Part shown: positions 17,576 through 30,194 of the stretch, one piece after another
Layout of the letters: each line of letters begins with the position of its first letter
Numbering within the stretch: position 1 is the stretch's first letter
DNA from: Escherichia coli
Lineage (GTDB): Bacteria; Pseudomonadota; Gammaproteobacteria; Enterobacterales; Enterobacteriaceae
Length of the DNA stretch: 64,000 bases
NCBI RefSeq assembly: GCF_050920415.1
Contig: NZ_CP169309.1
Direction: 5' to 3' (one strand)
Position numbers and translations under genes: made by a program
The notes under the pieces: model-generated
What the model was told of the DNA's origin: nothing
Seen by the model: only the letters and a program-made list of their open reading frames with translations
The model's database searches: none

Positions 17576-19002
17576 CGTTTTCCCTTATAATTACAGACGC
17601 GCACTAGCTGTGCTGGGTTAGCAATAATCCAACATTTTAATCCTGATTATGTTTATAAAAGCGAACGTTTGCTTAATAACTAACGTAAGTGGACCAGTTC
17701 TTCTGAGTGAACTTAAATGGAGTAGCGATAGTTACTTATAATAACTTTGCCATACAAACGCCATGCTCTTGCATGCTATGTACCTTTATATATTTATCAA
17801 TCTGATACGAATCTAATAATAACCCTCATCATTAATGCAACTAATCTTATCTATATATCATGTGATATGTTCTGTAACAAGTAAAATCAACATAAAAAAT
17901 TCAGCAAAATTTAATATTCGTTCAACTAGCCGTCTCACATATGACATTATTAGTCAACTGCATTTGCCACAAGATGGCTATTTCATGGAACGCAGTAATT
18001 TCTTAGCGTCTATTATCATGCTAATTCTTAGGTCCCTAGCGATTATTCCAGCCTGGTTCGTCAGCTTACGCCATGAGATTGCTACATTCCTTTTTATCAT
18101 GGAGATATGGGGGAAAGCAGGCGACGCTTTTTCATCTACATTCATTGGTAAATATGGCTTTGGTCACTACGCCTTAAACCTTCTTCAATCACAGCTATTC
18201 GCCGGGCGATACGGCAAACAAACTAAGTGAAGCATCATCCTGAAAACACCAATGCGTACTGAACATCAACAAGCCTCTCCTGATCGACTTCAGAAGTGAC
18301 CAGTTACAAGCCACAAACCTGGAAACATATTTCATGATGAGAATTATGCTCAGCCTGATGGCGGGTAAACACTTATTTTCACCACGCTCACTGAGTTAGC
18401 CAGCAAAGGCCTCTTGTTTAGAGAGCAAATAAATTACATATAAAACAAATAGTTAATCAAATATCTTTGATTTGTGAAGGCCATCGTAAGTGTTCGTCTG
18501 ACTTCACATGGCATCTTCTTCATAGAAAAATATAGACATATTTTGTGACACGAATTGCAAATCTGGTTTTGTTATATGGATTGTGTGATTTTTGATCTGG
18601 TATAACAGGTATAAAGGTGTACCGCAGTAGTCAATGAGACTGAGCATCTCGCAATCTATGACAAACATCACTTCAGTCTGAAAGGAATATGAAAATGAGA
18701 TCAACAGACACTCTATTTTATGACTCTGGATAAAATGGATTGAGTAAGTGATATAGCTTACGAACATTCAAATCAATTAAACATCAGAAGAGATTTTATA
18801 CTCAGGTATTTAATCTGGTTCTCTGTTTATTTAAATAATGTGGAAGATAATTTTCACAGGAGACCTTATACAAAAAATATAAAATACAGCTACCAGTTAC
18901 CAAAGACACTATAAGCCTGGCAAAAAATATTACACAACATAAATGCTAATTGTTTATGCGGGCTTTGTATTGCTTTCTGTATCCTACAAATGAGTGAAAT
19001 TT

Positions 19003-19719
19003 ATGAAAAAGGCTAAAATACTTTCTGGCGTATTATTACTGTGCTTTTCGTCACCATTAATTTCTCAAGCTGCGACACTAGACGTACGTGGTGGATATCG
19101 TAGTGGAAGCCACGCCTATGAGACTCGACTCAAAGTCAGTGAGGGATGGCAAAATGGATGGTGGGCAAGTATGGAAAGTAATACCTGGAATACCATTCAT
19201 GATAATAAAAAGGAAAATGCCGCACTCAATGATGTTCAGGTTGAAGTTAATTACGCGATTAAACTTGATGATCAATGGACGGTGCGCCCGGGAATGTTAA
19301 CGCATTTTAGCAGCAACGGCACACGCTACGGACCCTACGTAAAACTGTCCTGGGACGCGACAAAAGATCTTAATTTTGGCATTCGCTATCGTTACGACTG
19401 GAAAGCTTACCGACAACAAGACTTATCCGGTGAGATGTCTCGTGATAACGTTCATCGTTGGGATGGATATGTCACTTACCATATTAATAGTGATTTCACC
19501 TTCGCATGGCAAACGACGCTATACAGCAAACAAAACGATTATCGCTATGCAAACCATAAGAAATGGGCGACGGAAAATGCATTTGTTCTACAATACCATA
19601 TGACGCCTGATATTACGCCATACATAGAATATGACTACCTTGACCGTCAGGGTGTTTATAACGGCAGAGATAATTTATCAGAAAACAGTTATCGCATTGG
19701 TGTGTCATTTAAACTGTAG
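19003..19719 (+). CDS. nanC: KdgM-family outer-membrane channel for N-acetylneuraminic acid
   Basis: 238-aa ORF from MKKAKILSGVLLLCFSSPLISQA with a beta-barrel-like alternating pattern and C-terminal ...YRIGVSFKL. Confidence 0.85.
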   Translation: MKKAKILSGVLLLCFSSPLISQAATLDVRGGYRSGSHAYETRLKVSEGWQNGWWASMESNTWNTIHDNKKENAALNDVQVEVNYAIKLDDQWTVRPGMLTHFSSNGTRYGPYVKLSWDATKDLNFGIRYRYDWKAYRQQDLSGEMSRDNVHRWDGYVTYHINSDFTFAWQTTLYSKQNDYRYANHKKWATENAFVLQYHMTPDITPYIEYDYLDRQGVYNGRDNLSENSYRIGVSFKL

Positions 19720-19738
19720 TAGACAGGAGACAGTCACA

Positions 19739-20845
19739 ATGAATAAAACAATAACGGCGCTTGCTATCATGATGGCTTCATTTGCCGCAAACGCGTCTGT
19801 ATTACCGGAAACTCCGGTGCCATTTAAAAGTGGTACCGGAGCAATTGATAACGACACTGTCTACATTGGTTTAGGTAGCGCAGGTACGGCATGGTACAAG
19901 CTGGATACACAGGCCAAAGATAAAAAATGGATAGCGTTAGCTGCATTCCCTGATGGGGCGAGAGATCAAGCAACCTCTGCATTTATTGATGGCAATCTGT
20001 ACGTATTTGGCGGCATTGGCAAAAACAGCGAAGGCTTGACTCAGGTATTTAATGACGTACACAAATACAACCCCAAAACCAATAGCTGGGTTAAATTGAT
20101 GTCGCACGCGCCGATGGGCATGGCGGGCCATGTGACTTTTGTACACAACGGCAAGGCTTATGTTACTGGCGGTGTTAACCAGAATATCTTCAATGGCTAT
20201 TTTGAAGATCTCAACGAAGCTGGAAAAGATTCAACCGCTATAGATAAAATCAACGCCCACTATTTTGACAAAAAAGCAGAAGATTATTTCTTCAATAAGT
20301 TTCTGTTGTCTTTTGATCCCTCAACACAGCAATGGAGTTACGCTGGCGAATCTCCCTGGTACGGGACGGCTGGTGCAGCGGTTGTGAATAAAGGCGATAA
20401 AACCTGGCTTATTAATGGTGAAGCCAAACCAGGACTACGAACGGATGCCGTATTTGAACTTGATTTCACCGGTAATAATTTGAAATGGAATAAACTTGCT
20501 CCCGTCTCATCACCAGATGGCGTCGCTGGCGGTTTTGCAGGCATGAGCAATGACTCACTTATATTTGCCGGAGGGGCCGGATTCAAAGGTTCACGGGAAA
20601 ATTACCAAAACGGTAAGAACTATGCGCATGAAGGCCTGAAAAAATCATATAGCGCTGATATTCATCTTTGGCATAACGGGAAATGGGATAAATCGGGCGA
20701 ATTATCGCAAGGTCGGGCCTACGGAGTATCATTGCCCTGGAATAATAGTTTATTGATTATTGGCGGTGAAACTGCAGGCGGCAAAGCGGTAACGGATTCA
20801 GTATTGATCTCTGTGAAGGATAATAAAGTCACAGTGCAAAACTAA
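19739..20845 (+). CDS. nanM: N-acetylneuraminate epimerase/mutarotase (Kelch-repeat protein)
   Basis: 368 aa from the internal Met MNKTITALAIMMASFAANA (signal peptide); repeated GG/GH Kelch-like blades; directly follows nanC. Confidence 0.85.
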   Translation: MNKTITALAIMMASFAANASVLPETPVPFKSGTGAIDNDTVYIGLGSAGTAWYKLDTQAKDKKWIALAAFPDGARDQATSAFIDGNLYVFGGIGKNSEGLTQVFNDVHKYNPKTNSWVKLMSHAPMGMAGHVTFVHNGKAYVTGGVNQNIFNGYFEDLNEAGKDSTAIDKINAHYFDKKAEDYFFNKFLLSFDPSTQQWSYAGESPWYGTAGAAVVNKGDKTWLINGEAKPGLRTDAVFELDFTGNNLKWNKLAPVSSPDGVAGGFAGMSNDSLIFAGGAGFKGSRENYQNGKNYAHEGLKKSYSADIHLWHNGKWDKSGELSQGRAYGVSLPWNNSLLIIGGETAGGKAVTDSVLISVKDNKVTVQN

Positions 20846-20909
20846 CGCTTCAGGGCCCCAGTAAAGGGGCCCTACTATCAATTTATCATTTCAATTACGC
20901 GAAAATTAT

Positions 20910-21890
20910 ATGAACGCAATAATATCGCCCGATTATTACTATGTTCTTACCGTTGCTGGTCTGTCTAATGCCATGGCGTATGGCGAAGGACTGCCATTAC
21001 CGGACAGGGAAGATACGCCTCATCCCAGAATTAAACAATTAGCGAGATTTGCGCATACGCATCCCGGAGGCCCGTCATGTCACTTTAACGACATTATTCC
21101 ACTGACTCACTGCCCACACGATGTTCAGGATATGCAGGGTTATCACCATCCTCTGGCAACGAATCATCAAACACAGTACGGCACCGTTGGCCAGGCTCTG
21201 CATATTGCACGGAAATTACAGCCCTTTATTCCTGATAACGCGGGGGTTCTCATCGTTCCATGTTGCCGTGGCGGATCGGCTTTTACTGCGGGCAGCGAAG
21301 GGACATATTCAGAACGGCACGGAGCCAGCCATGATGCTTGTCGTTGGGGAACGGATACCCCTCTATACCAGGATTTAGTCAGCAGAACGCGAGCCGCACT
21401 GGCAAAAAATCCGCATAACAAATTCCTCGGCGTATGCTGGATGCAAGGCGAATTTGACTTAATGACAAGTGACTACGCGTCACACCCTCAACACTTTAAT
21501 CATATGGTTGAAGCCTTTCGTAGGGATCTAAAACAATACCATTCTCAGCTTAATAATATTACTGGCGCGCCGTGGTTTTGCGGCGATACCACCTGGTACT
21601 GGAAAGAAAGTTTCCCTCATGCGTATGAAGCTATTTATGGCAATTATCAAAATAATATTTTAGCCAATATTATTTTCATCGACTTCCAGCAACAAGGTGA
21701 AAGAGGGCTGACGAACGCGCCTGATGAAGATCCGGACGATTTAAGCACGGGATATTTCGGTTCAGCGTACCGGTCACCGGAGAACTGGACGACGGCACTG
21801 CGAAGCAGTCATTTCAGCGCGGCAGCCCGTCGGGGGATTATTTCTGACAGGTTTGTAGAAGCAATTTTGCAGTTTTGGAGCGAAAGGTGA
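20910..21890 (+). CDS. nanS: 9-O-acetyl-N-acetylneuraminate esterase (YjhS)
   Basis: 326-aa ORF downstream of nanM in the same orientation. Confidence 0.8.
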   Translation: MNAIISPDYYYVLTVAGLSNAMAYGEGLPLPDREDTPHPRIKQLARFAHTHPGGPSCHFNDIIPLTHCPHDVQDMQGYHHPLATNHQTQYGTVGQALHIARKLQPFIPDNAGVLIVPCCRGGSAFTAGSEGTYSERHGASHDACRWGTDTPLYQDLVSRTRAALAKNPHNKFLGVCWMQGEFDLMTSDYASHPQHFNHMVEAFRRDLKQYHSQLNNITGAPWFCGDTTWYWKESFPHAYEAIYGNYQNNILANIIFIDFQQQGERGLTNAPDEDPDDLSTGYFGSAYRSPENWTTALRSSHFSAAARRGIISDRFVEAILQFWSER

Positions 21891-22472
21891 GCGGGGAGTT
21901 TATTCATGGGGGATGTCCTTGTCCGTTCCCAAAACAGGCAACAAAAAACAAATGAGATCAAGGTAATATCTCTTCACTTGCAGGCTCGAACAGCAGGCAA
22001 TTGCCAATATAATAATCTGGCACAAGGGTGAAAAACGCGCACCGCATAAACCGTTGTTATTGCTTAAAGATTAGCCGGATGCCTTAATAGACATCCGCGC
22101 CTTTTCGATTATGGCTCGGAAATCTACGAACCTCTGCACAGTTTACTGGAACGTTTTGGACCACAGCGTTCACAGTACCGACCTGATATGCCGTTCTGGC
22201 GATTATAAGGCGACGGATTCTGGCAAATAGACGATGATAATATGCTTAATGATGTTCAAAGAAATTAGGCCATCATTATATTATTGCTTGCATTTTCTTT
22301 CATTCCCAAAAGCACCCGCCATTAATCCCAGGCGCATTATGCAAAGGAAAATGATTAGGTAAACAATAAGATTTATAATCAGGAAAGGCGACTCGCAATA
22401 AAACGCAAAGTCGCCTTAACATTGGTAAAATATGCCCTTTACTACTCCTGTATCATGAACGGCTCATCACAT

Positions 22473-25400
22473 TTAAAGCTGACGTTGATCCAGACTGCTA
22501 TATATTGCCTTTATTTCATTTTTTACGCTTTCGCCACGGTACACCAAAGACGTATCGTATCGTTGATACTTATCTTCCCGTGCAGCACTGAACCAGTTAA
22601 AAGATCCGACACACAGCAGTTCTTCATCCTCAATCACAATTTTGCTGTGGACACGATTAACCAATTTCGTAGCGATACCCATCTTATTGAGCTTTTCAAC
22701 AGCATCATTCAGCAGATGTTTTTTCTCCTGACGCTTATCATCATCGACATGCGCTATATTGCAGTTTTTATCCGTCACCACAGTAATATCAATGCCCCGG
22801 GAACGGGCCAAAGCCATTGATGCCAGAAATCCCGTTTGCTCCATTTTTTGCCAGGATAACCAAGGGGAAATAATCGTTATTTTCTTTTGAGCTCCGGCAA
22901 GAGTCATGTTCAAAAATTCATCATGCTGCTCCACGCCATGCAGCGTTGAAATTTGTGTATGTGCGGAAATTAAATCCTGTCGTTTATGAAACTCAAATTG
23001 CAACGCATTATTATCTGAAGAAAAGAGATATTTTGCCAATAACCCTCGCGGCGAAAATGCGGGCTGCATCTCGATAAGGTCCATATCGCCAAATACCAGA
23101 AAACTATCTTTAGCGCGTGAGACAGCAACATTGAGGATACTGCTGTTGCTATCAAGAAACCTGCCATCTTCATGTTTTGAGTAGACTGGAGAAAAGAGAA
23201 CAATCGCCCTTTCCGCCCCCTGCAAGGAGTGCACAGTCCCCACTGTCAGTGAACCCTCCTCGTCTTTGCCATTAATTTCCAGCTTACGCAATGACGTTTT
23301 GATAGCATTAACCTGCGCCGAAAATGGCGTCACAACACCAACAACTTTGTACAGTGGTTCCCCGTAATGGCGCTCTATATCATCCTTATGTGCCACCAGC
23401 CATGCTGCTATTGTTTCAGCTTCAAGAGGGTTATAACGGCTCCCCCCATTTGGCTTCATGCCTCTACCATCAATATGTAAATATCCCATTGCGGGGAAAA
23501 TCGTCCCTTTTTCCATCCCTCTTTTAGGCTGCAACTTACCGTGATAGCAAAGTGAGTTACAGTAGCCGATGATGTTATTGAAACAGCGACGATGCTCATA
23601 CAGATACATTCCGCGCTCGAACTTGGGATCATACTGGTAGTGAGAGTTAAACTGGGCTACCTGCATTACGCTGCCAGATGCTGCACTTTTTCCAGACCCA
23701 CACACGTGAGTATATGTATTTATTAACTCTTCCTGAGTGCCACCAGAAATAATATTCTCCTCAAGCATATTGCCCATATCAGTGACGGGTAGACAATTCC
23801 AGATTGGAGCTATTTGCTCCGTATCGCCAATCACCAGCGCTTTCTTCGCCAATGCAAAGGAAGCTGCAGCAACCTCCGGGAGTACCTGCCCGGCTTCATC
23901 GACAATCAGTAAATCAGCAAAGTTATATAAATAATTATTATCCGATGTTCTATCGCCACCAAAAGATTTTCTTCTGTTCATATGGTAAGGCAACATGTAG
24001 CAGGTCATCACCACACAAGGAGTAAGTTTCATTCTTCTTAGCCAACGAGCCTCGGCGATAGTTATCCCGGTAATTCCTTTTTCTTTTTGCAAATTATCTA
24101 TAGCTGCCATATCAATCAGCCAACGCCCCTCCCAATAATGGGTCGCTACCAAGAACGCTGGAAAACGAATCTGAGTATCGGCAAGTTCATCCGCTCCTGA
24201 AAGATTCAATTCATCGTCACCTCTGTAACCCAAAGCATAAGTCAACTCACGCCATTGTTTTGCAGCTTCTATTTCGCGTCGGGCTATATCCTTCGCATAG
24301 TTGATGTTCTGTTGGCACTCATCCTGCTCCTTTTGCGTTTTAGCAATCAAACTATCAATAAATTCATCAATATCTTCGGGATAATTTCCCTGGAACGATG
24401 TCATTCTTGTGCCAAACGTAGAGTCCAGGAAGAGGTTAATCTGGTAATGGCGTTTAGTACGAACAGCAGGAAGCCATGACAAAACCGCATACACTAGCGA
24501 CTCATCAGCACGGTATTGCTGCCACTGCTTTTTACCTCTTGTTAAAAGTGAAATTTCATTGCCAATATTGAGAAGACGTGTGTTTTCGTCCTGAAGATAC
24601 TGGTCGAGATTCTCACTGATGGCTCGCTGTTCATGGCGGATATCATTAAGCCTGCGCCATGTGGGTTCGATTTGCTGAAGTTGAATAAACTGTGAAGTTA
24701 AACGTTCATGCAAAAGCGTCACTACATGCTCTGGTGAATTGCACTCTCCAGCTCCAAACGCCACCTCCGCTTTTTCAAGGTAAAATGCCCGGGCTTTTTC
24801 CAGATATTCCTGGGATTCAACGTGGTTAAAAAAATCTTCAGTCTGGTATTTCTTCGCAGCCTCAACCTGACGGCTTTTAGACGGAAAATAAGCGCCATAG
24901 CTTATTACCTCCGGCAACCAACGACCAGCCATTACGCCAAAACCAGTAGAGAAATCTTTTCCAAAGGCTTCAATAATATTGGTGACGGCCTGATTGTTAG
25001 TTGATGTGGCAATAATTACAGGAGGTTCAGCTTGATTAAGTGCGGCTCTAGTCCATTCGGTGGCGATAATAGAAAGCACCAGCGTAGTTTTACCCGTTCC
25101 CGGAGGACCGTTAACAGCGAGCATATCCCCCTGCTGTTGAGTCAGATAATGGCTCAGGGCATCGCGCTGCGCCACTGCCAGCGGAAACTTATCGCCGGAA
25201 TGCCCCAGACGTTCGCAGAACATAGCATTCTTAGCGAGAAGTGGCTCTAGTGGAACCATTTCATTTGAGGCAAAACGCGTTAATAGAGGAACCTTAACCT
25301 GGCTCATCAGCAGATGGTCATACAAAGGCAGGATATGAACACTGGCCCCTACATGCTGGCTAGCTTTAACAATATAACCGTATCCAGCCCGTTCGTATGG

Positions 25401-25988
25401 CTCAGATGTAGCGACCCAATTTCCAGCGACGTTTCTTAAAAGGTTATCTGACTGTTGAAGATAATTTTGCCAATGCTGACGATACCTGGCATGGCGTTCC
25501 GCTTTCTCTTCGTCAGTTTCTTTGTAATGTTCTGGTTGACCTTCATTAATGGTGGCTGTGTTATGCGTAGTTTTGTATTTGTCATATTGCACCAACTCAC
25601 CAATAGAAAAATGACCGGAAGGGAGAGGTTCAAGCAGATCGCGGGGAATAGTGGCTGAAGCGGCAGGAAACAAAAAACCTTCCCTATTAAGAAGAGCGGA
25701 GGTAACCAGTGGCGTAATAATTGCGGGTGCACCTGCCGTTTGCTCTTTGCCATGCTTTACAATGCGGTTCCACACCTGGGGCCGTAACACGACTTCAACG
25801 TTTTTTACAGACTCCCCTTCACCGTCAAAAAATGCCCGAATAGTTTCGTCATCCAACTGCCCTGCGGTGATATTTATCCACCGAATGAATGATTCCGTAT
25901 CTTTACGTGAAAACGTTCCTTTGCCAGATTCGGCGTCAGCTAGGGAGTTGCGCCAGTATGAAGTGAATCCCAATGTATTGCTGTCCAT
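22473..25988 (-). CDS. Large SF1 helicase (Upf1/Dna2-like ATPase core) fused to a C-terminal phospholipase-D/HKD nuclease domain; candidate single-gene defence protein
   Basis: 1171-codon [15 protein letters not shown] Walker A (aa 294-302; nt 25083-25109); LLIVDEAGQ motif II (DEAGQ aa 697-701; nt 23886-23900); [11 protein letters not shown] and [10 protein letters not shown] resembling SF1 motifs V/VI; C-terminal [21 protein letters not shown] = HxK(x)4D...GSxN signature (nt 22596-22649); sits immediately 3' of tRNA-leuX. Confidence 0.8.
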
Positions 25989-26253
25989 TTCTCATTCCGT
26001 GACATAATAGAAATCATTGATTTCATTGATGTAAATATTACTTATGATTAAACATTGTCCACGATGCGAGCGCGATCGCAATAAATATTGTGCCTGGAGG
26101 ATGGATTAGATTTTCTGAAAGAGCTAAATCCTTAATAGATAAACGCGTACATACTTGGTTCGGTATTCTTAAGGGATTTAATATGGATTGAACCAGGTTG
26201 ACGTTAGTTGAAAAAAACAGTGGAAAAGATTTGTGTGGCGCGGATTTCAGGCA

Positions 26254-26278
26254 TAAAAAAAGACCTCAGTTGAGGTCT
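26254..26278 (-). terminator. Probable intrinsic terminator of tRNA-leuX
   Basis: Hairpin agacctca/tgaggtct; read on the minus strand it is followed by a run of 7 T, directly after the tRNA 3' end. Confidence 0.5.
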
Positions 26279-26291
26279 ATTTACATACTTT

Positions 26292-26376
26292 TGGTGCCGA
26301 AGGCCGGACTCGAACCGGCACGTATTTCTACGGTTGATTTTGAATCAACTGCGTCTACCGATTTCGCCACTTCGGC
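26292..26376 (-). tRNA. leuX: tRNA-Leu (anticodon CAA)
   Basis: Reverse complement reads GCCGAAGTGGCGAAATCGGTAGACGCAGTTGATTCAAAATCAACCGTAGAAATACGTGCCGGTTCGAGTCCGGCCTTCGGCACCA: 85 nt, cloverleaf-compatible, CAA anticodon, encoded CCA end. Confidence 0.95.
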
Positions 26377-26571
26377 ACTGAAGAGGTATGCGGAAAACGT
26401 TGTGGATTATACCTGTCGCACGCCACCATGCAAGCGCCAGCTTGCTCGCACCTCGCTAAGTGCTGAAATTTTCAGCATTGCATACAGCGATGTGCAACCT
26501 TTGTCACACTCCAGGCACCACGCCCTACCATGCTCTACACTTCCCAGACAACACCAGAGAAGGACAAAAAT

Positions 26572-27591
26572 ATGTCGATGATAAAAAGCTATGCCGCAAA
26601 AGAGGCTGGCGGCAAACTGGAAGTTTATGAGTACGATCCCGGTGAACTGAAGCCACAAGATGTCGAAGTGCAGGTGGATTACTGCGGGATCTGCCATTCC
26701 GATCTGTCGATGATCGACAACGAATGGGGATTTTCACAGTATCCGCTGGTTGCCGGGCATGAGGTGATTGGGCGCGTGGTGGCGCTCGGGAGCGCCGCGC
26801 AGGATAAAGGTTTGCAGGTCGGTCAGCGTGTCGGGATTGGCTGGACGGCGCGAAGCTGTGGTCACTGCGATGCCTGTATTAGCGGTAATCAGATCAACTG
26901 TGAGCAAGGTGCGGTGCCAACAATTATGAATCGCGGCGGTTTTGCCGAGAAGTTGCGTGCAGACTGGCAATGGGTGATTCCACTGCCGGAAAATATCGAT
27001 ATCGAATCCGCCGGGCCGCTGCTGTGTGGTGGTATCACGGTCTTCAAACCACTGTTAATGCACCATATCACTGCCACCAGCCGCGTTGGGGTAATTGGTA
27101 TTGGCGGGCTGGGGCATATCGCTATAAAACTTCTGCACGCAATGGGATGCGAGGTGACGGCCTTTAGTTCTAATCCGGCGAAAGAGCAGGAAGTGCTGGC
27201 GATGGGTGCCGATAAAGTAGTGAATAGCCGCGATCCGCAGGCACTGAAAGCACTGGCGGGGCAGTTTGATCTCATTATCAACACCGTCAACGTCAGCCTC
27301 GACTGGCAGCCTTATTTTGAGGCGCTGACGTATGGCGGTAATTTCCATACAGTCGGCGCGGTCCTCACGCCGCTGTCTGTTCCGGCCTTTACGTTAATTG
27401 CGGGCGACCGCAGCGTCTCTGGTTCAGCAACAGGTACACCTTATGAGCTGCGTAAGCTGATGCGCTTTGCCGCCCGCAGCAAGGTTGCGCCGACTACCGA
27501 ACTGTTCCCGATGTCGAAAATTAACGACGCCATTCAGCATGTACGCGATGGTAAAGCGCGCTACCGCGTGGTGTTGAAAGCAGATTTTTGA
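26572..27591 (+). CDS. ahr: NADPH-dependent Zn-containing aldehyde reductase (YjgB)
   Basis: 339 aa from [14 protein letters not shown]; zinc-ADH signatures ([23 protein letters not shown]) and a GxGxxG NAD(P) fold. Confidence 0.85.
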
Positions 27592-27594
27592 AAA

Positions 27595-28158
27595 TCATTC
27601 GCAGCGCTGATCTGAGGCGCTGCCCTCTTTCGCACATATTCTGTTTTGTCTTATCGCCAGCACAGCCTGCCGACATTGTTCGGTGACATTGGCAATATCA
27701 TGGTTGATATCAATGCGCACAATATCCTGTTCATCTGCTTGTGGTCGCTCCAGCGCCTCAAACTGACTTTTTAGTAACGCTACCGGCATAAAATGCCCAG
27801 CCCGACGCTGCATTCGCGCGAGAATAGTTTCATAATCGCCATCTAACCAGAGGAAATGAACATGGGGGCTACCCTTGCGTAAAATATCACGATACTGTTT
27901 TTTTAATGATGAACAGACAATAAATCCTGTTTCATTCTTTTTATAAAGACTGTATGAAGCATCATTTAAGCGTTCCAGCCAGGGAAGTCGATCTTCATCA
28001 GATAATGGAATGCCTTGCGACATTTTATCTATATTTTTGGCTGGATGAAGATCGTCACCATCAATAAATTTCGCAGACAATAACGCGGCAACCTTGCTAC
28101 CAATTAATGTTTTACCACTCCCTGATACGCCCATCAAAATAAAGCTTTCACCCGCCAT
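27595..28158 (-). CDS. idnK: Gluconokinase (thermosensitive, GntII system)
   Basis: 187-aa ORF with P-loop GVSGSGKT; divergent from idnD. Confidence 0.85.
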   Translation of the reverse strand: MAGESFILMGVSGSGKTLIGSKVAALLSAKFIDGDDLHPAKNIDKMSQGIPLSDEDRLPWLERLNDASYSLYKKNETGFIVCSSLKKQYRDILRKGSPHVHFLWLDGDYETILARMQRRAGHFMPVALLKSQFEALERPQADEQDIVRIDINHDIANVTEQCRQAVLAIRQNRICAKEGSASDQRCE

Positions 28159-28374
28159 TTAAAATCTCCTGAATCATCTTACCTGCGGCGATACTACGCC
28201 TGGCGGCATAATAATTTCACGTTTTTTTATTTCTGTTGATAAGAATTACAAGGCACATCACGTTATGCGTAACATAGTAATGTAACAATTTTCTGACGTG
28301 ATCTTCATCACAAATAATGACAATTAAAACCGCTTAAATGCTTCCGAGGTGTCTACCTGACCAGTGAGGAATTT

Positions 28375-29406
28375 ATGCAAGTGAAAACACAGTCCTGCGT
28401 TGTTGCGGGCAAGAAAACTGTTGCCGTTACCGAGCAGACGATAGATTGGAATAATAATGGAACATTAGTACAAATAACCCGAGGTGGAATTTGCGGTTCC
28501 GATTTACATTATTATCAGGAAGGAAAAGTAGGTAATTTCATGATAAAGGCACCGATGGTGTTAGGTCATGAAGTTATCGGTAAAGTTATTCATAGCGACT
28601 CATCAGAATTACATGAAGGGCAAACGGTAGCCATTAATCCGTCTAAACCTTGCGGTCACTGCAAATACTGCATTGAACATAACGAGAATCAGTGTACAGA
28701 GATGCGTTTTTTTGGCAGTGCCATGTATTTCCCTCATGTTGATGGTGGCTTTACCCGTTATAAAATGGTCGAAACGTCGCAATGTGTCCCTTATCCGGCC
28801 AAAGCTGACGAAAAGGTTATGGCTTTTGCCGAACCTTTAGCCGTCGCGATTCATGCCGCACATCAGGCCGGCGAGTTACAGGGCAAGCGAGTATTTATTT
28901 CCGGTGTTGGGCCCATTGGCTGCCTGATTGTCAGTGCTGTGAAAACACTGGGGGCCTCGGAAATTGTCTGTGCCGATGTGAGTCCCCGTTCCCTTTTGCT
29001 GGCCAAAGAGATGGGGGCGGATGTGCTCGTAAACCCACAAAACGACGACATGGATCACTGGAAAGCGGAAAAAGGCTATTTCGATGTCAGCTTTGAAGTG
29101 TCCGGTCATCCTTCATCAGTGAATACCTGTCTGGAGGTCACTCGTGCACGCGGCGTAATGGTGCAGGTAGGTATGGGAGGCGCGATGGCAGAATTCCCAA
29201 TGATGACGTTGATTGGTAAGGAGATTTCACTCAAAGGCTCTTTCCGTTTTACCAGCGAATTTAATACCGCAGTGTCATGGCTGGCGAATGGCGTTATCAA
29301 TCCACTGCCTTTACTGAGTGCTGAATATCCCTTCACTGACCTGGAAGAGGCGCTACGTTTCGCCGGTGATAAAACCCAGGCAGCAAAAGTCCAGCTTGTT
29401 TTCTAA
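28375..29406 (+). CDS. idnD: L-idonate 5-dehydrogenase (Zn-dependent MDR family)
   Basis: 343-aa ORF with GICGSDLH and GHEVIGKV zinc-ADH motifs; first gene of idnDOTR. Confidence 0.9.
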   Translation: MQVKTQSCVVAGKKTVAVTEQTIDWNNNGTLVQITRGGICGSDLHYYQEGKVGNFMIKAPMVLGHEVIGKVIHSDSSELHEGQTVAINPSKPCGHCKYCIEHNENQCTEMRFFGSAMYFPHVDGGFTRYKMVETSQCVPYPAKADEKVMAFAEPLAVAIHAAHQAGELQGKRVFISGVGPIGCLIVSAVKTLGASEIVCADVSPRSLLLAKEMGADVLVNPQNDDMDHWKAEKGYFDVSFEVSGHPSSVNTCLEVTRARGVMVQVGMGGAMAEFPMMTLIGKEISLKGSFRFTSEFNTAVSWLANGVINPLPLLSAEYPFTDLEEALRFAGDKTQAAKVQLVF

Positions 29407-29429
29407 GAGATAAATAAAGGAATAATACA

Positions 29430-30194
29430 ATGAACGATCTATTTTCACTGGCAGGAAAAAATATCTTGATTACCGGTTCAGCACAGGGCATTGGCTTTTT
29501 ACTGGCAACCGGCCTGGGTAAATATGGCGCACAAATAATTATTAATGATATTACTGCCGAACGCGCAGAACTTGCTGTAGAAAAACTCCGCCAGGAGGGT
29601 GTTCGGGCCGTTGCCGCACCTTTTAATGTTACCCATAAACATGAAATTGATACCGCCGTTGAACATATCGAAAAGGACATCGGCCCCATTGATGTGCTGG
29701 TGAATAACGCCGGTATCCAGCGCCGTCATCCTTTTACTGAGTTCCCTGAACAAGAGTGGAATGATGTGATCGCAGTAAACCAGACCGCCGTGTTCCTGGT
29801 GTCGCAAGCGGTAACTCGTCACATGGTTGAACGCAAGGCGGGTAAAGTTATTAATATTTGCTCGATGCAAAGCGAACTGGGACGTGACACCATCACCCCT
29901 TATGCCGCATCGAAAGGAGCGGTAAAAATGCTCACCCGCGGCATGTGCGTCGAGCTGGCGCGCCACAATATTCAGGTCAACGGTATTGCGCCGGGCTATT
30001 TCAAAACAGAAATGACTAAAGCACTGGTTGAGGACGAAGCCTTCACCGCCTGGTTGTGCAAACGGACCCCCGCCGCACGCTGGGGCGATCCGCAGGAACT
30101 GATTGGTGCTGCGGTGTTCCTTTCTTCAAAAGCCTCTGATTTCGTAAACGGCCACCTGTTGTTTGTTGATGGCGGCATGTTGGTGGCTGTTTAA
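29430..30194 (+). CDS. idnO: 5-keto-D-gluconate 5-reductase (short-chain dehydrogenase)
   Basis: 254-aa ORF with TGSAQGIG Rossmann motif and YAASK catalytic motif. Confidence 0.9.
   Translation: MNDLFSLAGKNILITGSAQGIGFLLATGLGKYGAQIIINDITAERAELAVEKLRQEGVRAVAAPFNVTHKHEIDTAVEHIEKDIGPIDVLVNNAGIQRRHPFTEFPEQEWNDVIAVNQTAVFLVSQAVTRHMVERKAGKVINICSMQSELGRDTITPYAASKGAVKMLTRGMCVELARHNIQVNGIAPGYFKTEMTKALVEDEAFTAWLCKRTPAARWGDPQELIGAAVFLSSKASDFVNGHLLFVDGGMLVAV

Follow-up and report, generated by a model that had tools for sequence, protein, structure and literature searches.

The 1171-codon gene between nanS and leuX is, with a probability of about 85% judged from its sequence, an intact copy of Escherichia coli yjhR that would encode a type II Mokosh (MkoC), a one-gene system against phages and mobile elements. 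The window analyzed here is the whole 64,000-nucleotide stretch of DNA, and within it the gene begins with ATG and runs on the reverse strand for 3516 nt without an internal stop or frameshift (1171 amino acids plus the stop codon; calculated mass 132.4 kDa). Neither the gene nor its classification is new, since both are already public: RefSeq labels the protein “helicase YjhR” (WP_000378101.1) in a 4.5-kb piece of identical DNA, and the Cury et al. 2022 preprint regards the product of yjhR as a Mokosh in fused form.

The PADLOC profile for MkoC (PDLC03924, Mokosh type II) aligns with residues 1-1169 of the protein along model positions 1-1135 of 1136 (E = 0, 1466 bits). Profiles of MkoA (aa 692-974, 7e-33) and MkoB (aa 1011-1139, 2e-12) match parts of the same protein, and the DrmC profile also matches its PLD domain. 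The preliminary description had given this architecture as that of type II Mokosh and had proposed a search with defense-system profiles; the end-to-end MkoC match, together with 63% identity to a validated MkoC, bears this out. As in MkoC, a helicase is followed by a PLD nuclease in a single gene, and the Walker A, Walker B, and HKD motifs are intact. The gene and its parts are as follows.

22473..25988, reverse strand: yjhR / mkoC coding sequence, assigned as a single-polypeptide type II Mokosh (reading frame, PADLOC MkoC, RefSeq, dN/dS)
25239..25988, reverse strand: family-specific N-terminal domain (aa 1-250), with conserved YWRNSLAD (aa 10-18) and IPRDLLEP (aa 114-121)
23019..25193, reverse strand: Upf1-like SF1 helicase core (aa 266-990), an insertion-split RecA1 and then RecA2 (Pfam, profile, Foldseek)
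25086..25109, reverse strand: Walker A or motif I, GPPGTGKT (aa 294-301, K300); G294-T302 invariant or at least 90% conserved in 71 homologs
23919..24938, reverse strand: mostly helical RecA1 insertion of about 340 residues (aa 351-690), with model helices at 393-629
23886..23900, reverse strand: motif II or Walker B, DEAGQ (aa 697-701), at least 90% conserved in 71 homologs
23109..23129, reverse strand: motif VI, VAVSRAK (aa 954-960, R958); S957 invariant, V954-A959 at least 90% conserved
22476..22928, reverse strand: C-terminal PLD-family (HKD) nuclease domain (aa 1021-1171; Pfam PLDc_2, profile matches, PADLOC)
22596..22649, reverse strand: HKD motif, H1114-x-K1116-x4-D1121-x6-G1128-S-x-N1131, the sole HxK(x)4D match in the protein

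All of the motifs named in the preliminary description (Walker A with K300, DEAGQ, the SRAK-type motif, H1114, and GSFN) are present at the residues it gave, and TVHSLQG lies at aa 918-924. The searches and the structure prediction it called for also came out in its favor. In Pfam, there are significant matches for the helicase (AAA_11, aa 273-461, 6e-9; AAA_12, aa 795-969, 1e-19) and for the nuclease (PLDc_2, aa 1029-1153, 5e-10; PLDc active-site motif, aa 1110-1134, 7e-6). The HKD sequence, HSKIVIED-x6-GSFN at aa 1114-1131, fits the canonical HxK(x)4D(x)6GSxN, and the polypeptide has one HKD motif and one PLDc_2 domain. The catalytic residues are kept in the 71 homologs, whose identity goes down to 28%; D1121 and G1128 are invariant, and conservation reaches at least 90% at H1114, K1116, S1129, and N1131. 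The insertion is located where Upf1-like helicases have their 1B/1C accessory domains, and no part of YjhR varies more than the middle of this insertion (aa 451-595), with a mean identity to distant homologs of 0.16 at aa 471-595 compared to 0.5-0.6 in the RecA cores.

A profile built from the 71 sequences was searched against solved structures. The helicase matched SETX-like (1e-17), DNA2 (3e-17), Upf1 (8e-17), Sen1 (9e-15), and IGHMBP2 (1e-12) structures, and the PLD domain matched Nuc (1byr, 9e-7), NucT (6ehi), and PLD6/Zucchini (4ggj). The AlphaFold model of YjhR (pLDDT 90, pTM 0.85) has Upf1-like helicases as its top solved neighbors in Foldseek: SETX, Upf1, IGHMBP2, Aquarius, and DNA2, with E values from 6e-17 to 1e-13, a probability of 1.00, and TM scores (target) of 0.5-0.57 at an identity of only 11-14%. 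YjhR is thus a Upf1-like (SF1B) helicase by its RecA pair, its motifs I, II, V, and VI, its RecA1 insertion, and its Upf1, DNA2, and Sen1 neighbors, and its C-terminus has the motif and the fold of a PLD-superfamily (HKD) nuclease. No solved structure of a Mokosh protein was found by sequence, profile, or fold, the matches being generic Upf1-like helicases and small PLD nucleases, and the N-terminal domain (250 residues) is without a relative among solved structures. This domain is confined, in the top AFDB50 matches, to MkoC-type proteins and their fragments.

On the chromosome, leuX lies upstream of yjhR on the same strand, with its own terminator at 26261-26278, and nanS (20910..21890, forward strand), described as convergent in the preliminary description, does converge on yjhR, across a gap of 582 bp. 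The other features of this neighborhood are the following.

26292..26376, reverse strand: leuX, tRNA-Leu(CAA), an unoccupied integration site (ARAGORN, Rfam)
25989..26090, reverse strand: conserved 5' region traveling with the gene (five-lineage alignment, promoter-like site)
22385..22417, reverse strand: terminator-like hairpin about 60 nt past the stop codon, a GGCGACU...AGUCGCC stem and then UUUCCUG
22000..22205, forward strand: stub of an SBD-HNH phosphorothioated-DNA-binding type IV endonuclease (RefSeq pseudogene on identical DNA)

Two descriptions of this neighborhood hold only in part. The gene had been called AT-richer than its neighbors, and at 45.1% GC it is so compared to the window (48.4%), nanS (48.4%), and ahr (54.2%), but not compared to nanM (44.1%) and nanC (41.7%), which have as low or lower GC. 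It had also been said to lack a partner gene. The open reading frame list and the RefSeq annotation contain no other intact gene between nanS and leuX, but the gap to nanS holds the type IV restriction stub, which is 206 bp long, frameshifted, deleted at its C-terminus (a shared deletion), and convergent with yjhR. “Stand-alone, no partner” is a description of a decayed locus, because strain 18KM2445, which carries the other full-length yjhR allele, has an intact 290-aa phosphorothioate-dependent type IV endonuclease convergent with yjhR (438 bits, where NF045808 has a cut-off of 180). Mokosh II has been reported to co-localize with type IV restriction in E. coli in a co-occurrence study. The homologs in Salmonella, Serratia, and Aeromonas are found among toxin, NACHT, Fic, IS, and island genes, with no conserved partner gene common to the three contexts. 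In an Rfam scan of 18000-30000, no non-coding RNA other than tRNA was seen.

Islands are inserted between leuX and yjhR in other strains, and yjhR is therefore chromosomal backbone flanking the leuX integration hot spot. In two of these strains, a partial copy of the leuX 3' end adjoins yjhR, with the island beyond the copy. A gene of a KpLE2-type or P4-type leuX island lies between leuX and a direct repeat, with an integrase, and yjhR has no such arrangement around it: the window has a single copy of the 23-mer at the leuX 3' end, 21000-27000 is free of att-like repeats, and no integrase appears in the open reading frame list or the annotation. The idea of yjhR as cargo of a leuX island was rejected, given the lack of a framing repeat and the position of yjhR outside the inserted elements in two island-bearing strains.

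The 5' region of yjhR is conserved across genera. In the five-lineage alignment, its non-coding identity exceeds the coding identity, though the proteins are only 63%-74% identical. It contains an imperfect dyad, TTGCGATCGCGCTCGCAT, at 26064-26081, an invariant GTGGACAAT that includes a -35-like TGGACA (26056-26061), and an invariant AAATCAAT at 26016-26023; the SG150-type gene discussed below keeps the dyad as TTGCA-N8-TGCAA. A promoter-like site, TGGACA-16-AATATT, is a weak match (9 of 12), and the promoter assignment is tentative because, taking the five aligned lineages together, no convincing -10 hexamer is found at the canonical distance from the invariant TGGACA. At the other end of the gene, the terminator hairpin has a minimum free energy of -29.1 kcal/mol and a z-score of -2.96 against shuffles (106-nt stretch).

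The full-length gene is rare, being found in only 12 of 5426 complete E. coli genomes, while about 1700 carry a dead 3' fragment. The yjhR of K-12 is such a fragment, and most fragment carriers among the matches listed share its breakpoint (at about 23700 of the window). Near-universal loss in E. coli could mean that the gene is costly or of little use. These counts, along with the adjacent endonuclease reduced to a stub and the weak promoter-like match, are also what one would expect if YjhR were an intact-looking but nonfunctional relic in a decaying locus, either not yet disabled or not expressed. However, the frame is open throughout, the catalytic residues are all intact, and the upstream region has been conserved across genera. 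The two full-length E. coli alleles differ with a dN/dS of 0.13 (0.06-0.16 in every domain) and a dS of 0.20. Judged by this ratio, yjhR is under purifying selection, and a value so low over such divergence would require long-term selection on the protein; a relic is very unlikely. The same rarity bears on whether YjhR might be a housekeeping helicase-nuclease of chromosomal repair or replication, DNA2-like or RecD-like, and not a protein of immunity. Weak similarity in sequence to DNA2, RecD, and RecD2 points that way, as does the location in the chromosomal backbone, where neither an integrase nor an att repeat is nearby, but more than 99% of E. coli genomes lack yjhR or have it truncated, and so it does not serve a core function. 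All NCBIfam repair-helicase scores are also far below their cut-offs, the homologs sit in variable, island, and defense contexts, and the end-to-end match is to a defense model with a close homolog of demonstrated phage phenotype, so that a housekeeping role is extremely improbable.

The mechanism of a type II Mokosh such as YjhR can be sketched from a homolog, the MkoC of E. coli 5-366-08_S1_C1 (system SG150), which gave E. coli protection against phages (Millman et al. 2022). It is the “EcMokosh II” or “EcMkoC” of Ragucci et al. 2025 and has the same sequence as WP_000344089.1. In the work of Millman et al., Walker A and PLD mutants of Mokosh lose defense. Ragucci et al. 2025 found EcMkoC to be a 132-kDa monomer by mass photometry that cut only single-stranded DNA (ssDNA) and nicked plasmid, in a panel that included no RNA substrates. 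EcMkoC protected only against an ssDNA phage in one panel, and its Walker mutants still cleave in vitro.

From this published work, the most likely mechanism is that a Upf1-like translocase delivers single-stranded nucleic acid to a single-HKD nuclease. Resting YjhR would be a monomer like its 63%-identical homolog, and on infection it would engage single-stranded nucleic acid, the helicase spending ATP to load on or translocate along the strand and thereby feeding the nuclease. ATP binding would be needed for defense in vivo and not for cleavage in vitro. We infer 5'-to-3' ATP-dependent translocation or unwinding by YjhR from family membership only. The active site of HKD nucleases is made from two HKD motifs, brought together by internal duplication or in a homodimer. 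Since YjhR has one motif, substrate-induced dimerization would be a likely step in activation, a suggestion of our own to which the monomeric state of the homolog by mass photometry is a counterpoint. Specificity is likely determined by the variable N-terminal and insertion regions. The differences between YjhR and the validated MkoC (37% of residues) are concentrated in these putative specificity regions, at aa 131-265 and 451-595.

One could also consider an RNA-directed system, in which the helicase acts on phage transcripts or R-loops, the nuclease activity of the PLD domain is directed at RNA, and ssDNA cleavage is a side activity. Among solved structures, the nearest helicases act on RNA (SETX with ssRNA, Upf1 with RNA, and IGHMBP2 with RNA), the PLD domain matches the RNA nuclease PLD6/Zucchini, and RNA or RNA/DNA-hybrid sensing has been proposed by Millman et al., as has a parallel with MOV10L1 and Zucchini by Cury et al. 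However, purified EcMkoC acted on ssDNA and plasmid and protected against an ssDNA phage, albeit in a panel without RNA substrates; the DNA enzymes DNA2 and Nuc match about as well as the RNA enzymes, and the evasion of Mokosh type I is published as depending on phage DNA glucosylation. RNA as the main target is possible but doubtful. With DNA as the target, YjhR-type Mokosh II may survey incoming ssDNA in general, such as conjugative strands, rolling-circle replicons, and ssDNA phages, and not only lytic phages, with the N-terminal domain as a possible sensor and substrate-driven dimerization of single HKD domains as a possible on-switch. Also, yjhR and the adjacent phosphorothioate-dependent endonuclease may be a functional pair, in which modified double-stranded DNA is cut and the ssDNA intermediates are cleared. 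If both held, the deletion behind the K-12 fragment, carried by most of the listed remnant carriers, would have left the leuX hot spot without this barrier to gene flow; taken jointly, this whole chain is unlikely.

As a discovery, the gene carries little weight, since a defense-finder profile matches the protein, a RefSeq name exists, and the family has phage-defense and first biochemical data. A search of the full-text literature brought up no study devoted to the mechanism or the structure of Mokosh II; the published sources found on Mokosh are the discovery paper, a eukaryote-homology preprint, a co-occurrence study, a biochemical survey of 16 systems, and a result on the evasion of type I. 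The value of the locus lies elsewhere. The K-12 pseudogene yjhR can be recognized as the probable C-terminal relic of a Mokosh II system. The intact gene would be a natural, selection-maintained second E. coli allele, usable for mapping target specificity, and the locus appears to be a case of a Mokosh II and type IV restriction pair decaying beside the leuX integration hot spot. It also draws attention to three features of Mokosh II: an N-terminal domain that resembles no solved structure, the presence of just one HKD motif in an enzyme reported to be a monomer, and the strong conservation of the dyad in the 5' region.

Compared to the validated SG150 MkoC, YjhR has the same length (1171 aa) and is colinear with it, at 63% identity, 78% positives, and 2 gaps. 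The two share the N-terminal domain, the helicase motifs, the insertion, the HKD motif, and the 5' regulatory elements. They are not the same protein: identity is 66% over the published 399 residues, which are identical to the first 399 of WP_000344089.1 (E. coli PCN033). The phage-protection data belong to SG150 MkoC, and the defense function of YjhR is a putative one. The loci differ as well, SG150 MkoC lying where a CP4-like island ends, with HNH, Mrr-like, TIR, and type I restriction-modification genes around it. The start region of SG150 MkoC occurs in about 143 of the 5426 complete genomes, as against 12 for full-length yjhR.

Mokosh type I (MkoA and MkoB) likewise pairs a COG1112/Upf1-like helicase with a PLD nuclease, but it does so in two genes, MkoA having an N-terminal Ser/Thr kinase (Millman et al.), whereas YjhR is one gene with no kinase and a different N-terminus. 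In the eukaryotic piRNA pathway, MOV10L1 and PLD6 resemble YjhR in the helicase fold and motifs and in the single-HKD PLD nuclease fold, and the Cury et al. preprint superposed the yjhR protein on both (TM 0.74 and 0.63, respectively). These are separate proteins that act on RNA precursors, whereas YjhR is a fusion whose homolog cuts ssDNA in vitro. The HxK(x)4D(x)6GSxN motif and the PLDc_2 fold are also found in Nuc (pKM101), NucT, and BfiI. All three are small, obligate homodimeric single-HKD nucleases, whereas the PLD domain of YjhR is tethered to a helicase, in a protein whose homolog is a monomer in solution.

An intact gene joining a helicase to a phospholipase D (PLD) nuclease, yjhR (mkoC), lies between nanS and leuX, and its interpretation as a type II Mokosh gene is supported. 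The gene and its surroundings are arranged as follows:

20910..21890, plus strand: nanS, convergent with the yjhR open reading frame (ORF)
22000-22205, plus strand: 206-bp frameshifted stub of an SBD-HNH type IV endonuclease gene in the yjhR-nanS gap, convergent to yjhR
22473..25988, minus strand: yjhR ORF, 1171 uninterrupted codons
26292..26376, minus strand: leuX, tRNA-Leu(CAA), on the same strand as yjhR

The PADLOC MkoC model covers YjhR end to end (E=0, 1466 bits, residues 1-1169 on positions 1-1135 of 1136), and the PADLOC type I Mokosh models MkoA (helicase) and MkoB (PLD) match it in part only. The one validated E. coli type II Mokosh system described by Millman et al., SG150 of E. coli 5-366-08_S1_C1, is 1171 aa long. 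Aligned with a full SG150-type protein, taken from E. coli PCN033, YjhR is colinear; 63% of residues are identical and 78% positive, and there are two gaps. The end-to-end match and the colinear homolog bear out the preliminary description, which had named the architecture as that of type II Mokosh. Over 4.5 kb the window matches E. coli MFDS1022581 at 100% identity, and there RefSeq names the gene yjhR (“helicase YjhR,” WP_000378101.1). Cury et al. describe its product as a fused form of Mokosh. The same description called the gene richer in AT than its neighbors. At 45.1% GC, this holds against the window (48.4%) and ahr (54.2%) but not against nanM and nanC, which are equal or lower. The gene nanS is intact in the window (326 aa); its counterparts in the nearest complete genomes are partial or interrupted by IS2. 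A 32-codon ORF (21809-21907, minus strand; YthB or hypothetical protein in RefSeq) overlaps the nanS 3' end in antisense.

Every motif read earlier from the sequence was found at its residues in YjhR, and Pfam matched both the helicase and the PLD domains:

aa 273-461: AAA_11
aa 294-301: Walker A GPPGTGKT, including K300
aa 697-701: DEAGQ
aa 795-969: AAA_12 (1e-19)
aa 954-960: VAVSRAK
aa 1029-1153: PLDc_2 (5e-10)
aa 1114-1131: canonical PLD signature, H1114-x-K-x4-D-x6-G-S-x-N1131

In a 71-sequence alignment with identity down to 28%, the Walker A loop, DEAGQ, Q923/G924, S957/R958, and the HKD residues are invariant or nearly so, as are the N-terminal motifs YWRNSLAD (aa 10-18) and IPRDLLEP (aa 114-121). 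A helical insertion (aa 351-690, about 340 residues) interrupts RecA1; its center and aa 131-265 show the lowest conservation in the protein. An AlphaFold2 model built from this alignment is confident (pLDDT 90, pTM 0.85), and its nearest solved folds are the Upf1-like SF1B helicases SETX, Upf1, IGHMBP2, Aquarius, DNA2, Sen1, and ZNFX1 (E 6e-17 to 1e-12; target TM about 0.5-0.57 for helicase-only chains). A profile search of PDB sequences returned the same helicases, plus Nuc, NucT, and PLD6/Zucchini for the C-terminal domain. Sequence, profile, and fold searches found no solved Mokosh structure, and no structural relative of the N-terminal domain was found.

The domain composition and integrity of YjhR are direct observations; its mode of action can be proposed. 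In a Mokosh II homolog, the ATP-binding site and the PLD site are both required for defense. Purified EcMkoC, the SG150 homolog, is a 132-kDa monomer (the calculated mass of the window protein is 132.4 kDa) that cuts only ssDNA substrates and nicks plasmid, and Walker mutants still do both; in one panel it protected against the ssDNA phage SECphi17 only. The Upf1-like translocase would load wherever invading nucleic acid exposes a single strand and hand that strand to the tethered HKD nuclease, with target specificity perhaps residing in the variable parts, the N-terminal region and the insertion. An HKD active site takes two HKD motifs and YjhR has exactly one, so the control step may be substrate-induced dimerization. 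The target may also be RNA, as the original Mokosh hypothesis had it. Evasion of type I Mokosh requires glucosylated DNA and so favors a DNA target.

When the window is aligned with a second E. coli allele, the SG150 type, Salmonella, and Serratia (loci L003, L005, L006, and L009), the roughly 100 nt 5' of the start codon show higher conservation than the coding sequence; the encoded proteins share only 63-74% identity. An imperfect dyad, TTGCGATCGCGCTCGCAT, lies upstream of yjhR; the SG150 type keeps TTGCA-N8-TGCAA, and the pattern across the aligned genes is TTGCn-N8-nGCAA. Beside it stand the invariant GTGGACAAT, which includes a -35-like hexamer, and a third conserved element, the invariant AAATCAAT. 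All three elements fall within window 26016-26081 (minus strand). No -10 element could be fixed upstream of yjhR, so the promoter call is tentative. The conserved region is probably a promoter with the operator of a putative regulator, traveling with the gene. A stable hairpin lies 3' of the stop codon.

Since leuX is a known integration site, yjhR could be considered island cargo. The leuX 3' end is present once in the window, no repeat or integrase framing yjhR was found there, and the site is empty. Two other strains with full-length yjhR have different elements between leuX and the gene, E. coli 2017-02-2CC a P4-like satellite and E. coli 18KM2445 a methyltransferase-rich island, and both keep an incomplete leuX 3'-end copy on the yjhR side. 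This copy separates island from gene in both strains, so the cargo reading was rejected and yjhR is chromosomal flank. The satellite (L004 11364-17541) carries primase-helicase, Icd-like, Psu, and Delta genes; the island (L003 11161-17796) carries two large DNA methyltransferases and an IS-disrupted restriction gene.

Among 5426 complete E. coli genomes, 12 carry full-length yjhR. They divide into two allele groups of six, one with at least 99.7% identity to the window and the other with 93.7%. Between the groups dS is 0.20 and dN/dS 0.13 (0.06-0.16 for each domain), and the full-length gene is therefore under clear purifying selection. About 1700 further E. coli genomes keep only part of it. 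Among the matches listed, most genomes retain the last ~1.2 kb, and this common breakpoint suggests one ancestral deletion; a few remnants stop about 125 bp earlier. In an aligned K-12-like strain (L002 6474-7714), homology stops at window ~23700, leaving codons ~764-1171, and KpLE2-type sequence (topAI, yjhQ, yjhP) follows. The K-12 pseudogene yjhR is accordingly the relic of a Mokosh II gene.

More widely, when 1.84 billion cluster representatives were searched exhaustively, 1101 clusters matched at E<=1e-30 and 9784 at E<=1e-3, and close relatives (69-74% identity, 1170-1180 aa) extend across Enterobacterales and Aeromonas. Two relatives of ~990 aa (L010 3851-7973, L011 288-3218) stop where the PLD domain would start. 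One, which begins 8 nt after a GGDEF-domain gene, may be a variant that uses another effector; the short contig carrying the other shows no such neighbor.

The gene had been described as having no partner. No intact gene occupies the yjhR-nanS gap, but the stub there derives from a phosphorothioated-DNA-binding type IV endonuclease gene, intact in E. coli 18KM2445 (L003 5986-6858; 290 aa; NF045808 438 bits, cut-off 180); its deletion is identical in the window and in K-12-like strains. The SG150-type gene is flanked by an HNH endonuclease and an Mrr-like enzyme, and Wu et al. found Mokosh II with type IV restriction in 882 of 975 E. coli instances, as well as co-localized. “No partner gene” is therefore the description of a decayed locus. 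Homologs in Salmonella, Serratia, and Aeromonas share no common neighboring gene across the three contexts compared, which supports an autonomous helicase-PLD protein. In PCN033 (L009 7776-18399), a CP4-like island ends in a dense group of defense genes: the SG150-type gene, the HNH endonuclease, a PADLOC PDC-S02/Mrr-like endonuclease, a degraded TIR gene, and type I R-M subunits.

Worth noting are the rarity of intact yjhR, the origin it gives for the K-12 pseudogene, a pairing with a type IV endonuclease that has decayed, an N-terminal domain without a structural relative, the puzzle of one HKD motif per chain when the homolog is a monomer, and the conserved upstream dyad. YjhR itself is of a known kind, a type II Mokosh protein whose gene is already named and whose classification is already public (RefSeq; Cury et al.).
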